IMG/VR virus record: IMGVR_UViG_3300033997_000186
Location: 1 to 38,876 of that record
Reading direction: 5' to 3' (one strand)
Source: a virus
Length of the DNA stretch: 38,876 nt
A program made the translations under genes and the position numbers. Below the pieces are notes generated by a model that saw only the letters and a list, made by a program, of their open reading frames with translations, ran no database searches and was not told the DNA's origin. Below are positions 1,841-35,471 of the stretch, in pieces (within the stretch, counting starts at the first letter, position 1; each line of letters begins with the position of its first letter).

Positions 1841-1910
1841 TTTGTACTTTTTTACTTTTGTACTTTTGACCAAAGGGACAAAATGACAAACGTACAAAAG
1901 GACAAGGGCC
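1841..1910. repeat. Array A of 8-bp units (4 x TTTTGTAC-type then 5 x AAAAGGAC-type), overlapping the repA RBS and start codon
   Basis: tttgtac ttttttac ttttgtac ttttgacc aaagggac aaaatgac aaacgtac aaaaggac aagggcc, with a strict 8-bp register. Confidence 0.7.
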
Positions 1911-4900
1911 TGGCCGGCTTTTACGAGGAGCGGTTTAACTCCGACCCGTACAGCCTCATGGCTTACTTCGACGCTCAGATCAGCGCTGCAGCTGCTGACG
2001 TCTCTCTAAAGTGGTCTTCCGTCTCCAGCGCCGTGCGCCTCAACGGCAAGCCGCTGGCCAAGTATTCAAAAACCAAACCTGTTGCCCTCGAAACCCGTTA
2101 CCACGGGAAGGTGATGGTTTGGGGCGAGGTGAAGGAGACCGCCGCCAAGGACGACCTGGCCGAATTTGAATACCCGTTCCTCACCTTCTCGAACAACGTC
2201 ACCGGGTCGAGCACCTGGTCAGGCTTTACTGCGCTCCTCGAACTTTACAAGGATTCCCGCGGTGTCGTCTCTGACGATCGCCACCGCAAATGGCAGGCCG
2301 AGCAGGAAAAGCGGCGCGCCGAGCGTGAAGCCAAGCGCGAGGCCGAAGAAGCGGCCGAGCGCATTCGTGCCGAGCGCGTGGAAAAAGAGCTGGCGGCGTA
2401 CAAGCACGCTTGGCTGACCGGCGAGCGCGGCGAATTCGACTACGAAGGCACCAGCCGCGGCCGCGCCTACATCGGGCGCGGGTTTGTCGAGGTCCTGGGC
2501 GAGGAGGACGGCAGCTCTCCTTACTTGCAGGCGAAACAGATTTCTGACGTAGCGTCACGCTTCAAAATGTTGAAAATGCGTGACCGTCACGGTGAATTCA
2601 CCGCCGTTCCTCTCTACGATGCCTATCGAAATTTCCTCGGCCTGCAGCGCCTCTATGCTGACAAAAAGCTGCAGGGGACCGGCGTCAAGATGGCTGGCGC
2701 CCATTGCATCCTGGGCGACCTGGAAACCGCGCAGGTCCGTTTCGCGGTCGAAGGTTTCGCAACCGGCGCCAGCATCTACCTGGCAGAGCTCGAGGCCGGC
2801 CGTAACGTTGCGGTCGTCGTGACCTTCAACGTCGACAACCTGGTAAAGGTGCTGCATGTCTATGACAAGCTGTATCCGGCCTGGCGCTTCTGGAATGGCG
2901 CCGACAATGACCAGTGGAAGACCTCAGGCAATGCCGGCTTGCTGGCGGCCCTGGAAGTGCATAAAGAGCTGCAGCACCCTGGCATCGTTCCGCAGTTCAA
3001 GCTGACCGAGGAGCAGATCGCCGAGGCCAAGGCCACCGGCAAAGGTCCGACCGACTGGAACGACTTCCACGTCCTCTACGGCCTGAAAGCCACAGCCAAG
3101 GCTCTGCATGCCCGCGCCAGCGTGTTTCACGCCCAAAAAGACTGGTTCAGCTACTGCCTGCAGCGCGTCGAGCGCAGCGGGCGTTTCGCCGAGAAGGCCG
3201 CGAAAATGGCGATCAGCGGCGGCATGAACCTGGTCCCGATCAAGTACAGCACCGACGACGTCATTCGAGCGGTGCTCGAGGTGCTTCCCGCCGTGGCACC
3301 GGTCGAGCTGCGCACGAAGCTGCGTAGCCTGGCCTTGTGGATCGCCAACCAGCGCCGCAACCAGGCCCAGCAGCTGCGCAGCTTCTCGCCTGACGCCTTG
3401 AACAAGCCATATGTGCAGTACATGCCTATCGCTGCAGTGCCGCACCCGGAGCACGGCAGCCCGATGCTTCCTGGCCACCTGGCCGACCTGGTCGAGAGCC
3501 TCGAGGGGACCATCATCGTTCGCGCCCCAATGGGCAGCGGCAAAACCGAGGACCTGATCGCACCCGTACTGCAGGCGTCGACCAAAGGCGCTTATATCGC
3601 CCACCGAATTTCCCTGATGGATGATGCCACCGCCCGCTTGAACCTGGACCGCGAAGGCAACCAGGTCGACGCCAAAGTCGAGCATTACCAGCTGGTCAAC
3701 GCCTGGCAGATGCCCTACGTCTCGCACCTGACCTGCTGCGTCAACAGCCTGACCAACAAGAAATTTTACAACGCCGAGGACCGCAGCTGGTTTACCACTC
3801 TCGAAACCATCTGCATCGACGAAGCGAGCCAGGTTCTGCGCCATGTCACCTCAGGCCCGGTAGAGGGCCGCGTGCGCGTCATGGACGCACTGATCGAGGC
3901 CGTCAGCTCGGCCAAGCGCGTCGTACTGTGCGACGCCGACGCCAATGACTCGGTTATCGAGTTCTGTGCCTTGGCGCGTCCTGGTCAGATCATCACCGTT
4001 ATCGATATCCAGGGGCAGAACAAGCAAATTCGCGTCGACCACGGCGACGACGAAAGCGTCTGGCAGCTGGCGATCGACAAGATCAGCGAAGGCCGTCGGG
4101 TGATGGTTGCCAACGACTCGGCCGAGAGTGCAAAGAAAATGGCGGCCCTCATTGAGCAGATGGTCGAAGCCGGCGAAATGCCCGAGCGGCGAATGCTCCT
4201 GGTACACGCTGACAGCAAGGCCGACCCGGACGTCGAGGCGTTCCTCAGCGACCCGAAAAGCGAGGCCCTCAAGTATGACGTGCTGATCTACTCGCCCGCT
4301 ATTTCGTCGGGCGTCTCGATGAATCAGGCGCATTTCGAGTGCCATTTCGGCCTGTTCAGTGGCAACTCTGTCGGGCCATCCGACGCCCTGCAGATGCTTC
4401 GCCGCGATCGGACGGCAACCCACTACATCATCGGCATCGGCCACAGCTCGAGCCAGCGGGAAACGAACCCCGAGGTTATGTATCGGGGCATGATGGTGCT
4501 CGAGGAGCTGGCCTGCCAGATCGAGAACACCCCCGAGGAATTTCGCGTCGTGCGCAAAAAGACTGCATTCGACAAGGTCTATCTGTCGACTGTGACCTCT
4601 GAGAACCGCGCCCGCGCCAACTTTGCCAACAACCTGCTGCTGATGCTCGAGGCCGAGGGCTACCTAGTCCAGCGGCTCGACCTGCAGGGCGCCGAGGAGG
4701 AGCTCGCCGAGCTGTCCAGGATCAATCGCAAGTTCGCCGCCGAGCTGGTTTTCAGCAAGCGTATGGACTTGATCGAAAGCGTAACCACCCCCGACGAAGC
4801 CGAATTCTTGCGCCTCAACCGCCAGGAAGTGCGCAGCGAGGCCGAGAGTGCCCGCGTCGATCGCTACCACATTGAGCACCAGCTCTGCGTGGACGATATC

Positions 4901-5731
4901 AGCGCCACCGACGTCGCTTTCTACGATGATCGCGGTATCGACAAGGTGCGCGCCCTGGAGCTGCTGCAGTCCACTGCCGAGCAGGCCAAGGGTTACGACC
5001 TCGCCCAACGCAAGGCGCGGTCGGTCCTCACGCAGCATCGATTCAAGGCAGCTCCTCGCGCCATGCTCGAGGAGATTTTCGCCATCCTGACCCTGGACCG
5101 CATGACAGGCCTCGGGGAGTTCAACAGCGACCAGTGCCGCGAGGTCCGGGACCTGATCAAGTCCGACCAGGACACGCTGGATATCTACAATACCCTCAAG
5201 CTCGGCCGCTACATCCCGACGCTGGCCTCTAAGGTCTGCGCCACCACGCTTGTGAAATCGATCCTCGACCGCCTGGGCCTCACCACGAAAAAGCGTAAGA
5301 CGAACGGCCAGAACCTTTACCAGCTCAACATGGATAATTGGCACTTCGTTATGGGCTACTTACAGCGCCGCGCTGCCCGAAACGTCCACTCCCTGGCTGC
5401 CCATGAGCATGAAACCACGCACCAGCCCCTGCTGGCCCCTGAGGAGCCCGCAGATGCACCTGCGTATGTGTTCGCTGAAAGCAGGGACACTTTGCATTGT
5501 GAGGGTGTAAGCACAGATGAAAAGTATCCCTTGGAGGTAATCGAGCGGATTTGTGCTGTTGCTTCGCTTTGCGAGCTCCCCCCCGGTATCTCTGTTGCCC
5601 GCCTGGTGGGGGCGCTCAGCCCGGACCTGGTCAACCAGGTGACGGGGCCGAACGCGGACATGGCGGCCGCCAAGTGGACGTTGGATTATGCGGCGCGATT
5701 ACTTAGCCAGGAGACGCGGTATACTGTATGA
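1883..5731 (+). CDS. repA: RepA-like replication protein (Toprim primase domain plus helicase/NTPase), N15 RepA type
   Basis: 1282 aa. Toprim-like motifs EGFATGAS and ADND. Walker A (APMGSGKTE) and Walker B (ICIDEASQ). Position next to cI and telN matches other telomere phages. Confidence 0.85.
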   Translation: MTNVQKDKGLAGFYEERFNSDPYSLMAYFDAQISAAAADVSLKWSSVSSAVRLNGKPLAKYSKTKPVALETRYHGKVMVWGEVKETAAKDDLAEFEYPFLTFSNNVTGSSTWSGFTALLELYKDSRGVVSDDRHRKWQAEQEKRRAEREAKREAEEAAERIRAERVEKELAAYKHAWLTGERGEFDYEGTSRGRAYIGRGFVEVLGEEDGSSPYLQAKQISDVASRFKMLKMRDRHGEFTAVPLYDAYRNFLGLQRLYADKKLQGTGVKMAGAHCILGDLETAQVRFAVEGFATGASIYLAELEAGRNVAVVVTFNVDNLVKVLHVYDKLYPAWRFWNGADNDQWKTSGNAGLLAALEVHKELQHPGIVPQFKLTEEQIAEAKATGKGPTDWNDFHVLYGLKATAKALHARASVFHAQKDWFSYCLQRVERSGRFAEKAAKMAISGGMNLVPIKYSTDDVIRAVLEVLPAVAPVELRTKLRSLALWIANQRRNQAQQLRSFSPDALNKPYVQYMPIAAVPHPEHGSPMLPGHLADLVESLEGTIIVRAPMGSGKTEDLIAPVLQASTKGAYIAHRISLMDDATARLNLDREGNQVDAKVEHYQLVNAWQMPYVSHLTCCVNSLTNKKFYNAEDRSWFTTLETICIDEASQVLRHVTSGPVEGRVRVMDALIEAVSSAKRVVLCDADANDSVIEFCALARPGQIITVIDIQGQNKQIRVDHGDDESVWQLAIDKISEGRRVMVANDSAESAKKMAALIEQMVEAGEMPERRMLLVHADSKADPDVEAFLSDPKSEALKYDVLIYSPAISSGVSMNQAHFECHFGLFSGNSVGPSDALQMLRRDRTATHYIIGIGHSSSQRETNPEVMYRGMMVLEELACQIENTPEEFRVVRKKTAFDKVYLSTVTSENRARANFANNLLLMLEAEGYLVQRLDLQGAEEELAELSRINRKFAAELVFSKRMDLIESVTTPDEAEFLRLNRQEVRSEAESARVDRYHIEHQLCVDDISATDVAFYDDRGIDKVRALELLQSTAEQAKGYDLAQRKARSVLTQHRFKAAPRAMLEEIFAILTLDRMTGLGEFNSDQCREVRDLIKSDQDTLDIYNTLKLGRYIPTLASKVCATTLVKSILDRLGLTTKKRKTNGQNLYQLNMDNWHFVMGYLQRRAARNVHSLAAHEHETTHQPLLAPEEPADAPAYVFAESRDTLHCEGVSTDEKYPLEVIERICAVASLCELPPGISVARLVGALSPDLVNQVTGPNADMAAAKWTLDYAARLLSQETRYTV

Positions 5732-5774: not shown

Positions 5775-6059
5775 TTGCAGTGCCAGGAAAAAATGGACCG
5801 AGCGTCCGAGCAACTCAGTCGCGCCAAGTCGGCGCTTAGTTTGGCCATGAAGGCCGGTATGGAAGCAACACGAGGTGAACTGCTGGACGTTATCGCCGCG
5901 GTATTCGAGAGGGTGGAGGGAGCAGAGACGGCACTGCGAGCAGGAGAAAACAAGGATGCCCAGCCGGGGCAGTTGACCCCAGCTGGTTCGAGAACTGATG
6001 CGGTGCAAAATCAGTTGCGGGTTGTTCCTTTCGCCGCCAGCGCCAGCAGCGCGTCATAA
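5775..6059 (+). CDS. Small ORF between repA and telN; candidate SOS-controlled antirepressor / induction factor
   Basis: A strong SD (AAGGGGAGGG, 5759-5768) sits 6 nt before a TTG at 5775, with an in-frame ATG at 5793. Predicted to be helical and acidic. The 3' end overlaps the telN 3' end convergently. Confidence 0.5.
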   Translation: MQCQEKMDRASEQLSRAKSALSLAMKAGMEATRGELLDVIAAVFERVEGAETALRAGENKDAQPGQLTPAGSRTDAVQNQLRVVPFAASASSAS

Positions 6060-7645
6060 GCACCCGCTTTGCTGTCACCGTCCGCCCTGGCGATTTCCAC
6101 GCCATTGAGTCGGGCGACAGCGACCCAGCGGCCAGCGTCCTCTGTCACCGAGATACGCGGCTTAGCATTGACCACCTCTGCCGGAACAGCCGGCGCGACC
6201 GCTCGACTTGAGCGGTTCGGGGTCGCCAGGGCTTCACTGGCCATAGCCAGGTAGTCCTTGATCGCTTGCCGGTGGCTGCCTACGTTCACAGAGATTGCTT
6301 TCTGCGAGATAAGGACGTCAGGCGAGGCGGCCACAGCTTGTTTCACCCATGCGTGAATACGCTGCGAAGCAACACCGCCCGCGGCTTGTTCGTCGAGCGC
6401 CTCGAGCGCCTCGAGCCGGCTGCCGTACTTGCTTTCGGGCTCGGCCGGGACGTCGTTGGTGTAAGTGATCTTGAAAGCCTTGTAGCTCTCCTGGGTGTCC
6501 ATGTCTTCATGGCCCAGCATTTCCCGCCAGAACACCGTTTCGTTGACGCTTTTCCAGCGTGCATCCCGCGTGAAATGAGTCTCGAAAACGATCCTCGCCC
6601 ATATCGCCCGGCTGTCCTTGAACACGCGATCGGGGCTGCCCAGCACCCGCTTGGCCACGGTGTTTAGGGTCTTGGCCACACGCCGGTTTACCTCGATGTT
6701 GTCCAGGTGCTGCAGCTCCAGGACTTCGGGCAGCACCCGCAGGCGCTCGAGCGCCTCGAGCACCAGGTCAGCCTTGAGCAGGGTGTAGATGCGGTAGCTC
6801 GAGCCGTAATCGACCCCGTTCCGGCGCTTGGCCTGTCCGCTGAATTCGAGCTCATACTCGCCGGCCTTCTCGAAGCGGCCGAGCTTGAGCACCTCGATTT
6901 CACGGCGGCCCGTGACCATCGCCAGCCCCATCGCCAGCGACGAGAAGCGCTGCACCGGCTCGCCGTTGGCGCCGATTTCAGCGTCGGTCAGCAGGCGCTG
7001 CGCGGTGTCGACATACTGGTAATAGTTGACCTCGACAGTATTGGTCGCGCGCTCCTCAAGGGTGGCCGTGGCCATGGTGGCCAGCTCGGCCTTTGTGACC
7101 GCGGGCAGCACCAGATGCCGCATGATTTCGTGGTCCAGCTTCATCGCCTGGATAGCCTCGAAAGCGTCGTGGTCGCGGTCCTGGCGGATCTGCGCCAGCA
7201 GCTCGCGGTGCGCGAGCCGCAGCTCGGTGATGTTGTCCAGGTCGACCAGGGCGAGCAGCTGCTCGGCGTACCGCGGGTGATGCTTAGCCAGGCGCCTGGC
7301 CGACTCCTCAATGCCATGGTGGCGCCAGTTCTGCGCGGTCACGGCCTTGCGGACGAGGGTCAGGTAGCGGCGATAGCTCGACGGGCGCAGCTTGTCGTCG
7401 TCCTTGCGGCGCTTGTCCTCATACAGGCGCTTTTTCAGGCTCTCAGCGATGCGCGTGATGCGCTTCGTCTTCTCGCTGCGCGACATGTGCGGGTCGCTGT
7501 CCACCAGCCTGACGTCCTGCAGCATTTTGTCGATCATGGGCTGCAGCTCGACCTTTTGCCGAGTAGCCCCGCCGTAGTTGCCAAAGCTGGCGCGCTCCTG
7601 GTCCTGTCCCATCGCCTCATCACCCTTCGTCAGTTCGTCGCTCAT
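6011..7645 (-). CDS. telN: Protelomerase (telomere resolvase)
   Basis: Matches remembered N15 TelN blocks: TGRREIEV / SGRRMIEI, FSGQAKRR / FSGQAKKR, IYTL, VFKDSRAIWARIVFE / VYKDSRAIYARIAYE, RWK.V.E.VF..EMLGHEDMDTQESYKAFK / RWKNVDEDVFFMEILGHDDENTQLHYKQFK. I prefer the ATG at 7645 over the TTG at 7711. Confidence 0.95.
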   Translation of the reverse strand: MSDELTKGDEAMGQDQERASFGNYGGATRQKVELQPMIDKMLQDVRLVDSDPHMSRSEKTKRITRIAESLKKRLYEDKRRKDDDKLRPSSYRRYLTLVRKAVTAQNWRHHGIEESARRLAKHHPRYAEQLLALVDLDNITELRLAHRELLAQIRQDRDHDAFEAIQAMKLDHEIMRHLVLPAVTKAELATMATATLEERATNTVEVNYYQYVDTAQRLLTDAEIGANGEPVQRFSSLAMGLAMVTGRREIEVLKLGRFEKAGEYELEFSGQAKRRNGVDYGSSYRIYTLLKADLVLEALERLRVLPEVLELQHLDNIEVNRRVAKTLNTVAKRVLGSPDRVFKDSRAIWARIVFETHFTRDARWKSVNETVFWREMLGHEDMDTQESYKAFKITYTNDVPAEPESKYGSRLEALEALDEQAAGGVASQRIHAWVKQAVAASPDVLISQKAISVNVGSHRQAIKDYLAMASEALATPNRSSRAVAPAVPAEVVNAKPRISVTEDAGRWVAVARLNGVEIARADGDSKAGAYDALLALAAKGTTRN

Positions 7646-7647
7646 AC

Positions 7648-7982
7648 ATACACCCTTTGCCCTAGTGAAAGATAGCAGGCTATTGCCATACACCCATAGC
7701 CCGCGTGTCAATAAGCATCATTGTACACCCATTGCCAGTGCATGTATACACCCATTACCCAATCTCACCTAATATACACCCATAGCCCAATATACATGGC
7801 TTAGTGCGCTCTATATTGGGCAAAGGGTGTATACACCGATCCCCCATTCTATACGTATAGAATGGGGGATCGGTGTATACACCCTTTGCCCTATGACTAT
7901 TTAGGGGTATGGGTGTATACAGGTACGGGCTATGGGTGCATGGGGATAGAGGGCTATGGGTGTACATATACACCCATAGCCC
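7648..7982. repeat. Array of about 11 copies of a 16-mer family, TAYACACCC(A/T)T(A/T)GCCC, arranged symmetrically around the tel palindrome
   Basis: Forward copies start near 7648, 7687, 7722, 7744, 7772 and 7877. Inverted copies start near 7818, 7905, 7928 and 7951, with one more forward copy at 7968. A 32-bp near-palindrome lies at 7951-7982. Confidence 0.8.
7818..7891. other. Telomere resolution site (telRL-like): 74-bp perfect palindrome centred between 7854 and 7855
   Basis: GGGCAAAGGGTGTATACACCGATCCCCCATTCTATACGTATAGAATGGGGGATCGGTGTATACACCCTTTGCCC, with every pair checked by hand. The core CCATTCTATACGTATAGAATGG resembles N15 telO, CCATTATACGCGCGTATAATGG. Confidence 0.9.
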
Positions 7983-8232
7983 TATGTCATAATGCCATTT
8001 GCCAAGGGTGATAGCTTGCGGGGGACTAATAGCGGAATGAGCCTGGTTGATGGCCAACAGGCCATAAAGGAGCGTCAAGCGCCTATACACCCCAAGGACC
8101 AGGCAGGGTCCTTTCTACAGGGCTATAGCGCCTAACCCGCATGCAGCAAGGGCTGCAGCGCTAAGGGGTAAGGACAGCGCTCGGCGCGGGGGCAGAGTGA
8201 CGGATAATGTGGCGCTTCGCGCCGCTGTTTGT

Positions 8233-8278
8233 TTGTACCTTTGACCTTTAGGCCTATTGTACAAAGGTACATTTGTAC
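8233..8278. promoter_or_regulatory. Array B of 7-8-bp TTTGTACC-type units upstream of parA (candidate par operator/centromere)
   Basis: ttgtacc tttgacc tttaggcc tattgtac aaaggtac atttgtac, lying 38 bp upstream of the parA ATG. Confidence 0.65.
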
Positions 8279-8315
8279 GTATATTGAGGGCCTCACCAAC
8301 TGCGAGGCCTTCGAC

Positions 8316-8963
8316 ATGGCAGCAAGAGTCTGGACAATACAGAACCAAAAGGGCGGCACGACAAAGACCACGACCGCAACCAATATCGCGTGCTGCCTGG
8401 CTGACAAGCACGGCAAAAGCGTGCTCCTGGTCGACCTGGACGGCCGCCAAGGCTCGGCAACCGACTGGGCAACCTCCCGCGCTGACAGCGCTACGCTGAT
8501 CCCCTGCGTCATCATGCGCGAAACCCTAAAGCGCGACCTGCCGCGTATCTCGAGCGGTTACGACTACGTGATCATCGACGGGATACCGCAAATCAGCACC
8601 CTTACCTCTGACGCCGTTAAGGCCTCTGACCTGGTCGTCATCCCCGTGCAGCCAAGCCAGTACGACATATGGGCGACCGCCGACATGGTGCAGCTCGTAA
8701 AGGACCGCCAGGAGATTACCGGGGGCACGCCAAAGGCCGTGCTGATGATCGCCAGGGCCATCGCCGGCACCCTCCTCGAGCGCGACGCGCAGCAGGCGCT
8801 GCTCAACTACGAAATGCCGATCACCGCCACCCAAACGCACCAGCGCGTCGCCTACGGCAAGGGCATCGCCCAGGGCAATAGCGTTATGGACCTACCACCG
8901 TCCGACGACGCCCGCCTCGAGATTGAAGCGCTGACCGCCGAGCTGCTGGAGCTTGATAAATGA
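8316..8963 (+). CDS. parA: ParA partition ATPase (small type Ib, no N-terminal HTH)
   Basis: Deviant Walker A QNQKGGTTKTT, then VLLVDLD and YVIIDG. GAGG lies 8 nt upstream of the ATG at 8316. Confidence 0.9.
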   Translation: MAARVWTIQNQKGGTTKTTTATNIACCLADKHGKSVLLVDLDGRQGSATDWATSRADSATLIPCVIMRETLKRDLPRISSGYDYVIIDGIPQISTLTSDAVKASDLVVIPVQPSQYDIWATADMVQLVKDRQEITGGTPKAVLMIARAIAGTLLERDAQQALLNYEMPITATQTHQRVAYGKGIAQGNSVMDLPPSDDARLEIEALTAELLELDK

Positions 8964-9271
8964 CCACCTCGAAAATCACCACCGCCCGCCCAAGCCGCGC
9001 CGTCGCGTCTGGCATTGAGCCGCATGTCGAGAAGGCCCGCCGCGCCGTTGTGAGCGACGCTGTCGAGGAGAAGCAGCTAAAAGCGATCGTGCCGACGAAG
9101 TACCACAAGGGCACCACCGACATTAAAAACATGTCGCTCGACAACGTGCCTGTTAAGTACCTGATCATCGAGGCGCTCGACGACCTTTTCAGGAAGTACG
9201 AGCAAGGGGAGGGGCATTACAGCATCGAGGACCAGGAGGAGCTGGCGCGTCGATTGAAGTCATTGAAGTGA
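8960..9271 (+). CDS. Small centromere-binding protein, ParG/omega-like ribbon-helix-helix (predicted)
   Basis: 103 aa, ATGA-coupled to parA. Disordered basic N-terminus, then a beta-helix-helix pattern (KQLKAIVPTKYHKG...VKYLIIEALDDLFRKY). Confidence 0.65.
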   Translation: MTTSKITTARPSRAVASGIEPHVEKARRAVVSDAVEEKQLKAIVPTKYHKGTTDIKNMSLDNVPVKYLIIEALDDLFRKYEQGEGHYSIEDQEELARRLKSLK

Positions 9272-33109: not shown

Positions 33110-33183
33110 GAAAGGACCAAATGGGAAAAGTGGCAAAAGGACAAAGGTACAAAGGTCCTTTGTTACCTTTGTCCTTTTGGCAC
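33110..33183. repeat. Array C of 8-bp units (6 x AAAGGAC/AAAGGTAC-type then 3 x TTTGTCC-type), forming a ~50-bp imperfect palindrome 5 nt upstream of terS
   Basis: gaaaggac caaatggg aaaagtgg caaaaggac aaaggtac aaaggtcc tttgttacc tttgtcc ttttggcac. Confidence 0.7.
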
Positions 33184-35422: not shown

Positions 35423-35471
35423 CTTTTTGCCTTTTGTACCCTTTGCCTTTTTGCCCTTTGTACCTTTGTAC
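35423..35471. repeat. Array D of six direct 7-9-bp TTTGTACC / TTTGCC units upstream of the candidate late promoter
   Basis: ctttttgcc ttttgtacc ctttgcc tttttgcc ctttgtacc tttgtac. Confidence 0.7.

Follow-up and report, generated by a model that had tools for sequence, protein, structure and literature searches.

A conserved repeat array around the tel palindrome of a Hapunavirus-like telomere phage: putative accessory sites for the protelomerase TelN

The tel locus and the repeats around it

The DNA analyzed here is a stretch of 38,876 bp, positions 1 to 38,876 of the IMG/VR virus record IMGVR_UViG_3300033997_000186 (the window). It belongs to a Hapunavirus-like telomere phage and carries, in this order, repA, the protelomerase gene telN on the minus strand, the palindromic telomere site tel, parA, and a parG-like gene. 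The closest named phages, the Halomonas phage phiHAP-1 and the Vibrio phage VP882, show ~69% nucleotide identity over telN and have the repA, telN, tel, parA order in common. Pfam analysis of the telN product reports a ResT/TelK catalytic domain (3.5e-30) and a TelK stirrup domain (5.6e-8), the TelK structure 2V6E matches its residues 26-474 (E=7.5e-54), and its best IMG/VR relative is 84% identical and aligned from residue 1. Judged by these matches, telN is a true TelK-like protelomerase gene bearing the stirrup DNA-binding domain. The subject of this report is an array of short repeats that surrounds tel on both sides, reaches the start codon of telN, and is conserved in related phages. The genes bordering tel, the palindrome and the repeat units, numbered outward from tel on each flank, are as follows.

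6011-7645, minus strand: telN, encoding a protelomerase of 544 residues; its ATG reads CAT at 7643-7645 on the plus strand
7649-7662, plus strand: unit L5, TACACCCTTTGCCC, abutting the telN ATG, as it does in the relatives L004 and L005
7689-7702, plus strand: unit L4, TACACCCATAGCCC, 14/14 to the consensus, a conserved island in alignment A1
7724-7737, plus strand: unit L3, TACACCCATTGCCA, whose head is the predicted telN -10 hexamer
7747-7760, plus strand: unit L2, TACACCCATTACCC, whose head is the predicted telN -35 hexamer
7775-7788, plus strand: unit L1, TACACCCATAGCCC, 14/14, its position relative to the tel center kept in relatives
7815-7894: tel palindrome of 80 bp, with 40-nt arms that are 98% complementary, no spacer, and a dyad at 7854/7855
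7818-7831, minus strand: outer-left unit, GGGCAAAGGGTGTA, facing away from the dyad and head-to-head with the inner-left unit
7832-7845, plus strand: inner-left unit, TACACCGATCCCCC, 11/14, the distal part of the core half-site
7864-7877, minus strand: inner-right unit, GGGGGATCGGTGTA, 11/14
7878-7891, plus strand: outer-right unit, TACACCCTTTGCCC
7904-7917, minus strand: unit R1, GGGGTATGGGTGTA, 13/14, crossover partner in the 86-bp deletion variant L053
7927-7940, minus strand: unit R2, GGGCTATGGGTGCA, 13/14
7951-7964, minus strand: unit R3, GGGCTATGGGTGTA, 14/14
7969-7982, plus strand: unit R4, TACACCCATAGCCC, 14/14, head-to-head with R3
8086-8099, plus strand: distal degenerate unit, TACACCCCAAGGAC, 10/14, a clade-specific head fused to a conserved AAGGAC
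8316: start of parA, right of tel, beginning MAARVWTIQNQKGGTTKTT (PHROG ParA, 4e-47)

A search of the whole window with TACACCCWTWGCC, allowing up to two mismatches, returns 12 matches. Eleven of them have at most one mismatch and all lie within 7649-7981; the twelfth, with two mismatches, is at 35435. Shuffled sequences give 1.36 matches on average and five at most, none of 100 shuffles reaching 12. The motif family is enriched far above chance, and its near-perfect copies occur only around tel. The units, whose coordinates and orientations were verified by script, follow a consensus of 14 positions, with a head TACACC, about five loosely constrained bases, and then GCCC. A preliminary description of this DNA had reported a symmetric array of about 11 copies of a 16-mer. 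The 11 units with at most one mismatch agree with that count, but two of the reported starts (7744 and 7772) were one base early and the copies nearest to and farthest from the dyad had been missed. Indeed, the two inner copies (TACACCGATCCCCC, at 7832-7845 in plus and at 7864-7877 in minus orientation) each match the consensus at 11 of 14 positions, and with the distal degenerate copy at 8086-8099 they bring the family to 13-14 units, not 11.

The reported geometry of the array is borne out by the unit list. All five left copies, L5 to L1, point in the plus direction (starts at 7649, 7689, 7724, 7747, and 7775), the motif forms the outer arms of the palindrome (7818-7831 and 7878-7891), and the right copies are mainly reversed, R1 to R3 being in minus and R4 in plus orientation. 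The 32-bp near-palindrome at 7951-7982 consists of two perfect 14-nt arms around a 4-nt non-palindromic spacer. Each flank is thus oriented like the core motif of its own side, with five of five left units in plus orientation, as the inner-left unit, and three of four right units in minus orientation, as the inner-right unit. Units of the same orientation are spaced by 23-40 bp on the telN side and by 23-24 bp on the parA side. The 15-mer ATACACCCTTTGCCC (7648-7662) recurs unchanged at 7877-7891 and, as its exact complement, at 7818-7832; since the telN start codon lies at 7643-7645, the gap between them is 2 nt, as had been described.

The tel palindrome itself is centered 209 bp upstream of telN, and its central six bases are TACGTA (7852-7857). 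Its core, CCCATWCTATAC/GTATAGWATGGG, is kept in 24 of 40 IMG/VR loci (those with a detected palindrome) and in VP882, and a scan of bacterial genomes finds it in Pseudomonas, Stutzerimonas, and Halomonas/Vreelandella. The protelomerases studied so far all cut with a 6-bp stagger (PMC3558466) and, by analogy, cuts at tel would be staggered by 6 bp and yield closed hairpins. Assemblies provide indirect evidence that tel is the physical end of the linear prophage genome. The exact window TelN is encoded by six metagenome contigs. Three of these, L054, L055, and L056, also carry the same DNA as the window upstream of telN, and their ends fall at +18, -7, and -44 nt relative to the dyad. Among the 40 IMG/VR loci, whose contig ends were surveyed, eight contigs (L022, L023, L025, L028, L029, L032, L020, and L007) end within -5 to +35 nt of their own dyad, a number that is a lower bound. 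Moreover, L009/L011 (IMG/VR 2713897325_000002) contains a 334-nt perfect fold-back centered on tel, with telN on both sides. With so many contig ends near the dyad, and with this fold-back, assemblies of hairpin-ended prophages mark the position of the telomere. The view of the preliminary description that a telomere site lies beside a protelomerase gene is therefore supported by the Pfam domains, the 2V6E match, and the contig ends of identical-TelN phages.

Two sets of loci depart from this organization. The contig L053 (ENA ERZ27245855, contig k141_775454) has the same TelN and agrees with the window without a mismatch on either flank, but lacks exactly 86 bp in the region corresponding to window 7818-7921, so that the entire tel core is gone. 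The crossover lies inside 11 nt, TGTATACACCC, common to unit R1 and the outer-left unit, an overlap shorter than usual assembler k-mer sizes. L053 may be a natural tel-less, presumably circular, derivative produced by unit-to-unit recombination, or an assembly artefact. Furthermore, the 24-bp tel core palindrome occurs without flank arrays inside large chromosomal contigs of Pseudomonas japonica (L052, 342 kb) and Vreelandella arcis (L047, 312 kb). The left arm in L052 retains a tel-like sequence (GGGCTAAAGCTGTATCCACGGAAGCCCCATTCTATAC), with another small palindrome of similar kind ~120 bp away. These palindromes could be telomere-phage remnants or unrelated operator sites.

Conservation of the array and its inheritance with telN

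The array was compared among 19 relatives with a complete intergenic region, anchored on the dyad, whose TelN proteins are 53-82% identical. Such a comparison with other telomere phages had been proposed in the preliminary description; the array is present in all 19 relatives, including phiHAP-1 and VP882. Unit offsets and orientations relative to the dyad are nearly the same throughout, those of the closest relatives being ~69, 97, and 120 bp on the telN side and ~64, 87, 111, and 125 bp on the parA side. Within the clade of the window, unit columns are 74% identical to the window as against 46% for spacer columns, a difference that none of 2,000 circular shifts of the unit mask matched (p < 0.0005), and in the four-way alignment A1 the units stand out as conserved islands. 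This pattern indicates that the units of the array are under constraint; the spacers are not conserved. An additional unit of 23 bp is present in the relatives L004 and L005; array size thus varies in steps of whole units.

The sequence of the units varies from clade to clade. While the GCCC(W)A tail is nearly invariant, the head reads TACACC, TGCACC, CATACAT, GACATAG, or GTACAG according to the clade, and the tel arms shift in parallel. When motif models are built on the flanks alone, the tel arm of the same locus scores 7-22 bits in each of the 19 loci, and control windows inside telN score no more than 9 bits. The cross-clade score matrix is block-diagonal by clade; it serves here only for the control comparison and the clade blocks, the own tel arm coming first in only seven of 19 rows, close relatives sharing motifs, and the group of L026, L041, and L024 scoring poorly. 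That heads and arms shift together suggests that both are read by the same protein. Within the latter group, L026 and L024 have TelN proteins that are 99% identical and surroundings that are 96-100% identical, yet differ by 22% in the region of the left tel arm and L1 (-120 to -1), where unit heads are mostly retained and spacer bases changed. This limits the perfect part of the L024 palindrome to 13 nt in each arm.

A pair of natural recombinants separates the array from the par genes. Between L004 and L014, ParA is 100% and the ParG-like protein 97% identical, whereas TelN is only 69% identical. In a sliding comparison, nucleotide identity stays at 38-80% across telN and the two flank arrays until about +240 to +300, and rises to 88-98% from +300 on, through parA and the ParG-like gene. 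The breakpoint therefore lies at about +240 to +300 (window 8095-8155), between the telN/tel and par modules, and even the parA-side flank of the array is inherited with telN. The par module has repeats of its own: in every relative, tandem and inverted 8-bp repeats of the TTGTAC/AAGGTAC type directly precede parA, with three to six units each, e.g. five copies of TTTTGTTC in L026. The corresponding features of the window, and the second par gene, are the following.

8231-8285: par-type 8-bp units TTTGTACC, TTTGACC, TATTGTAC, AAAGGTAC, and ATTTGTAC, overlapping the predicted parA promoter
8258-8285: predicted parA promoter, its -35 element starting at 8258 and its -10 element ending at 8285
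8960-9271: ParG-like protein of 103 residues, with a weak Pfam ribbon-helix-helix match (E=0.007), kept in all relatives

The ribbon-helix-helix label of the latter protein relies on this weak match together with a conserved sequence pattern. The ParA/ParG-like module probably has its operator or centromere in the 8231-8285 array. Units of the par type form a second cluster (AAAAGGAC AAAGGTAC AAAGGTCC TTTGTTAC CTTTGTCC), an intergenic near-palindrome, at 33,130-33,180, next to a start codon on the minus strand (33105). This cluster may serve as an operator or as a second par site, and is reminiscent of the dispersed centromeres of phage N15.

Between the right part of the array and the parA operator lie ~240 nt of conserved non-coding DNA (7985-8228). 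This stretch has three AAGGAC elements at dyad offsets kept across clades, the second and third being ~74 bp apart, GC-rich stem-loops (8094-8113), and a terminator-like hairpin with a T-run (8209-8235). The second AAGGAC is fused to a clade-specific unit head (8084-8099), and this composite of head and AAGGAC occurs at about +225 to +245 in most relatives. AAGGAC was considered as a member of the 16-mer family and rejected, because it does not vary among clades and looks like the 8-bp units of the par type. The hexamer is over-represented window-wide, with 35 copies where 13.4 are expected. The 7985-8228 stretch could encode a small RNA or contain further protein-binding sites; an Rfam search of the whole window at gathering thresholds, this stretch included, reports no hit.

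Flanking repeats in known telomere systems

The closest known system is the telRL/tos region of phage N15 (Deneke et al. 2000 and 2002, as summarized in PMC12624138). Its natural target spans ~310 bp and contains degenerate copies (L1/L2 and R1/R2) of the L3/R3 motif, the L3/telO-edge being part of the substrate that TelN requires, and N15 TelN stays on its hairpin products, giving sequence-specific protection from Mre11-Rad50 (PMC12624138). The same 2025 study proposes, as a speculation, that L1/L2 and R1/R2 recruit further TelN into a multi-TelN protective assembly (PMC12624138). The N15 flank copies and their orientation are recovered here as two extra copies with three mismatches in 13 each, a result equaled by 11 of 200 shuffles. 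As in N15, the window has the parA/sopA, tel, telN order with divergent transcription, a palindrome for an enzyme of the TelK/TelN family, flank copies of the distal half-site motif oriented as the core motif of their own side, and a natural target much bigger than the minimal substrate. The inner arm unit TACACCGATCCCCC appears to correspond in position to N15 L3 and the telO edge (CACACAATTGCCC).

The two loci differ in three aspects. The extra copies number about two in N15, all degenerate, and in the window 11 near-perfect units are joined by two or three degenerate ones; the symmetric arms of the window measure 40 nt, as compared with 28 nt in N15, and include an additional inverted outer unit per arm; and one of its units abuts the telN start codon. 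The array is the Hapunavirus counterpart of the N15 L1-L3/R1-R3 copies, much more regular and copy-rich, and would fit the idea of accessory TelN sites far better than N15 does. The statement of the preliminary description that it is far more extensive than the N15 site holds for copy number, but the contrast is weaker than supposed given the ~310-bp N15 target with its L1/L2 and R1/R2 copies (PMC12624138).

Other telomere phages have been described with simpler repeats. In PY54 and vB_YenS_P840, telRL has a flanking inverted repeat outside the minimal palindrome, for which a role in processing in vivo has been suggested in PY54 (PMC10612081); there it is a single inverted repeat of 10-15 bp, here an array. 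The phiHAP-1 annotation reports a 99-bp repeat_region and HMP1 has a 120-bp inverted repeat, which belong to the same family and locus as the window tel. In the phiHAP-1 annotation and the HMP1 paper, sources that do not include the original phiHAP-1, VP882, and Vp58.5 papers, only the central inverted repeat is described and no description of the flank arrays was found. Two further papers (PMC12042878 and PMC11054321) report nothing on tel-site repeats.

Beyond telomere phages, the type Ib centromeres (TP228 parH/ParG and pB171 parC), which consist of short repeats ahead of a small parA and the gene of a small DNA-binding protein, resemble the 8231-8285 TTGTAC/AAGGTAC array and not the 16-mer array. 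Non-cleaved sites that flank a catalytic core and take part in a higher-order complex are found in the lambda attP arm sites, in Tn3 res II/III, and in cer. The proteins of these accessory-site systems are unrelated to that of the window, and the likeness is an analogy only; at tel, no evidence was found for synapsis, topological selectivity, or a recruited inhibitor. The same holds for the Rap1 arrays that cover yeast telomeres (PMC12624138).

Putative accessory TelN sites and competing explanations

We favor, with a probability of roughly 0.6, the reading that the units of the array are uncleavable copies of the distal tel half-site, and hence putative accessory TelN sites that would support a subtelomeric complex at each genome end as well as the repression of telN. 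The layout that flank units share with the core half-site makes them paralogues of its distal part. As they have neither the cleavage-proximal ATTCTATAC nor a dyad partner, they could bind TelN without being cut. TelN would resolve tel at 7854/7855. The telN-side hairpin end would then keep a core half-site, one inverted outer unit, and five flank units, and the parA-side end a core half-site, one outer unit, and four flank units, in line with the four to five sites per end counted in the preliminary description. Five of five flank units on the telN side and three of four on the parA side would point to the hairpin tip. If TelN remains on its hairpin product, occupancy of the units may build a subtelomeric nucleoprotein complex ~130-210 bp long. 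Such a complex would concentrate TelN at the ends, where it could shield them from nucleases of the SbcCD/Mre11-Rad50 type and ensure prompt resolution of replicated junctions. The same occupancy of the units would repress telN.

The latter suggestion rests on a predicted promoter made of the units themselves.

7720-7748, minus strand: predicted sigma-70-like telN promoter, with a -35 element TATACA (7748-7743), a 17-nt spacer, and a -10 element TACAAT (7725-7720)

In the linear prophage, the 209 bp between the telN ATG and the hairpin tip must hold the whole promoter, and about a third of this segment is flank-unit sequence. A consensus scan of the telN side returns this single sigma-70-like match, composed of the L2 and L3 heads. 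The predicted hexamers are retained in L003, L004, and L005, the -10 element being TATAGT in the last two. Unit L5 would supply AAGGG, Shine-Dalgarno-like bases, on the telN sense strand. With the predicted -35 element in L2, the predicted -10 element in L3, and the ribosome-binding region in L5, occupancy of these units should repress telN. A TTGACA at 7706-7711, considered as a telN promoter element, was dropped because it is not conserved even in the closest relatives. In phiHAP-1, TTGACG-17-TATAAA is a candidate telN promoter, plausible by eye. The preliminary description had suggested TelN autoregulation and a telomere-proximal complex serving end protection, replication initiation, or pairing. 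A TelN-linked complex and autoregulation are reasonable in view of the conservation of the array, its inheritance with telN, and the promoter overlap; no evidence was found at this locus for roles in replication initiation or pairing.

Several observations weigh against this reading. The N15 TelN C-terminal domains, proposed to read the repeats, are dispensable for end protection, and the two core sites of N15 are not bound by TelN with strong cooperativity (PMC12624138). The flanking repeat of P840 is not needed for processing (PMC10612081). In the window, no more than 11 of 14 positions agree between the flank and outer units and the inner core half-site, the inner unit is the most atypical of the family, and after GCCC the units run on with WAT and the core with ATTC. 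The symmetric arms of 40 nt exceed the 28-nt N15 half, so that another protein could be the one that uses the outer units. What the recombinant pair shows is inheritance of the array with the telN side, which does not separate TelN from other genes there, and the telN promoter assignment is a consensus match only. A bolder version of the reading, which we regard as doubtful, makes each hairpin end a multi-protein bacterial telomere, with about six or seven TelN capping it in the manner of Rap1/shelterin and the telN-side units serving also as operator. If this were true, free TelN would repress telN only once all telomeric units are filled, and TelN supply would track the number of prophage ends.

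The doubt about the outer units leads to the strongest, though still improbable, alternative, in which another phage protein encoded on the telN/repA side binds the outer and flank units, as a factor specialized in telomere association or regulation, and TelN contacts only the inner ~28 bp of each arm. The candidates lie to the left of telN, where a cI-like repressor and a cII-like gene are also found (Pfam/PHROGs).

1883-5731: repA-like gene, left of telN
5775-6059, plus strand: conserved open reading frame for 94 residues, between repA and telN and overlapping the telN 3' end

The arms do extend past an N15-type 28-nt half-site, the outer and inner units together make a local dyad GGTGTA/TACACC, the inner unit is the most divergent member (11/14), and what the recombinant pair connects with the array is the telN side, not TelN itself. 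Moreover, the 94-aa ORF adjoins telN on every exact-TelN contig that reaches its position, and the phiHAP-1 equivalent at the same place is ORF35. In other linear plasmid phages this position is occupied by small lysis-lysogeny modules (PMC10432266). However, the 94-aa ORF returns no match, and thus no DNA-binding signature, in Pfam or PHROGs, and the flank units are single, without the local dyad. The head-plus-GCCC layout common to units and core half-site, which change together across clades, also argues for TelN, for which N15 provides a simpler precedent (PMC12624138).

Units without any dedicated binder, arising by duplication or gene conversion and kept as promoter parts, DNA bends, or recombination homology, would account for the 23-bp insertion/deletion of a whole unit in L004 and L005, for the recombination of two units that deleted the tel core in L053, and for the unit heads that give the predicted -35 and -10 hexamers. 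This explanation is very unlikely, since position, orientation, and sequence are kept across TelN proteins only 53-82% identical while spacers decay, the parA-side units serve no adjacent promoter, and the parallel change of unit heads and tel arms suggests a shared reader.

Less credible again is a type Ib-like centromere bound by the ParG-like protein (8960-9271) and segregating the linear plasmid. Type Ib centromeres are repeat arrays upstream of parA, as in TP228 parH and pB171 parC, the array sits between telN and parA, and the 103-aa protein is conserved, with its weak ribbon-helix-helix match (E=0.007). But the last unit of the main array ends at 7982, 334 bp short of the parA start, and it is the different TTGTAC/AAGGTAC array that overlaps the predicted parA promoter in every relative, with a second cluster of such units at 33.13-33.18 kb. 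Neither in proximity to parA or its promoter nor in co-inheritance with the par genes does the 16-mer array behave as a partition centromere: in L004 and L014, the par and parA-proximal regions are near-identical and the 16-mer arrays about as diverged as telN. Furthermore, five units lie beyond the telomere from parA and would land at the opposite end of the linear prophage. With repeats of its own in the par module, the ParG-like protein is unlikely to bind the 16-mer units, and together with the recombinant pair this argues for the tel/TelN system. Least probable of all are RepA-bound iterons of a replication origin, which the same-orientation spacing given above and a G+C content lower than the surroundings might suggest, as the array is mirror-symmetric about tel and not a tandem adjoining repA, from which telN separates it, the units are paralogues of the tel half-site, cumulative GC skew has no turning point near 7.8 kb, and the N15 replication origin lies inside repA.

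The array bears on the protection of bacterial hairpin telomeres and on the role of the repeats beside the N15 tel site. The Hapunavirus-type phages, whose hosts are Pseudomonas, Halomonas, and Vibrio, offer a much clearer array than N15. With 13-14 units, conserved positions, clade variants, and natural recombinants, the idea that repeats recruit TelN becomes directly testable unit by unit, and the matched sets of TelN and sites would be useful for engineering linear replicons. If the telN-side units are the operator of telN, the supply of TelN would be coupled to the occupancy of the telomeres.

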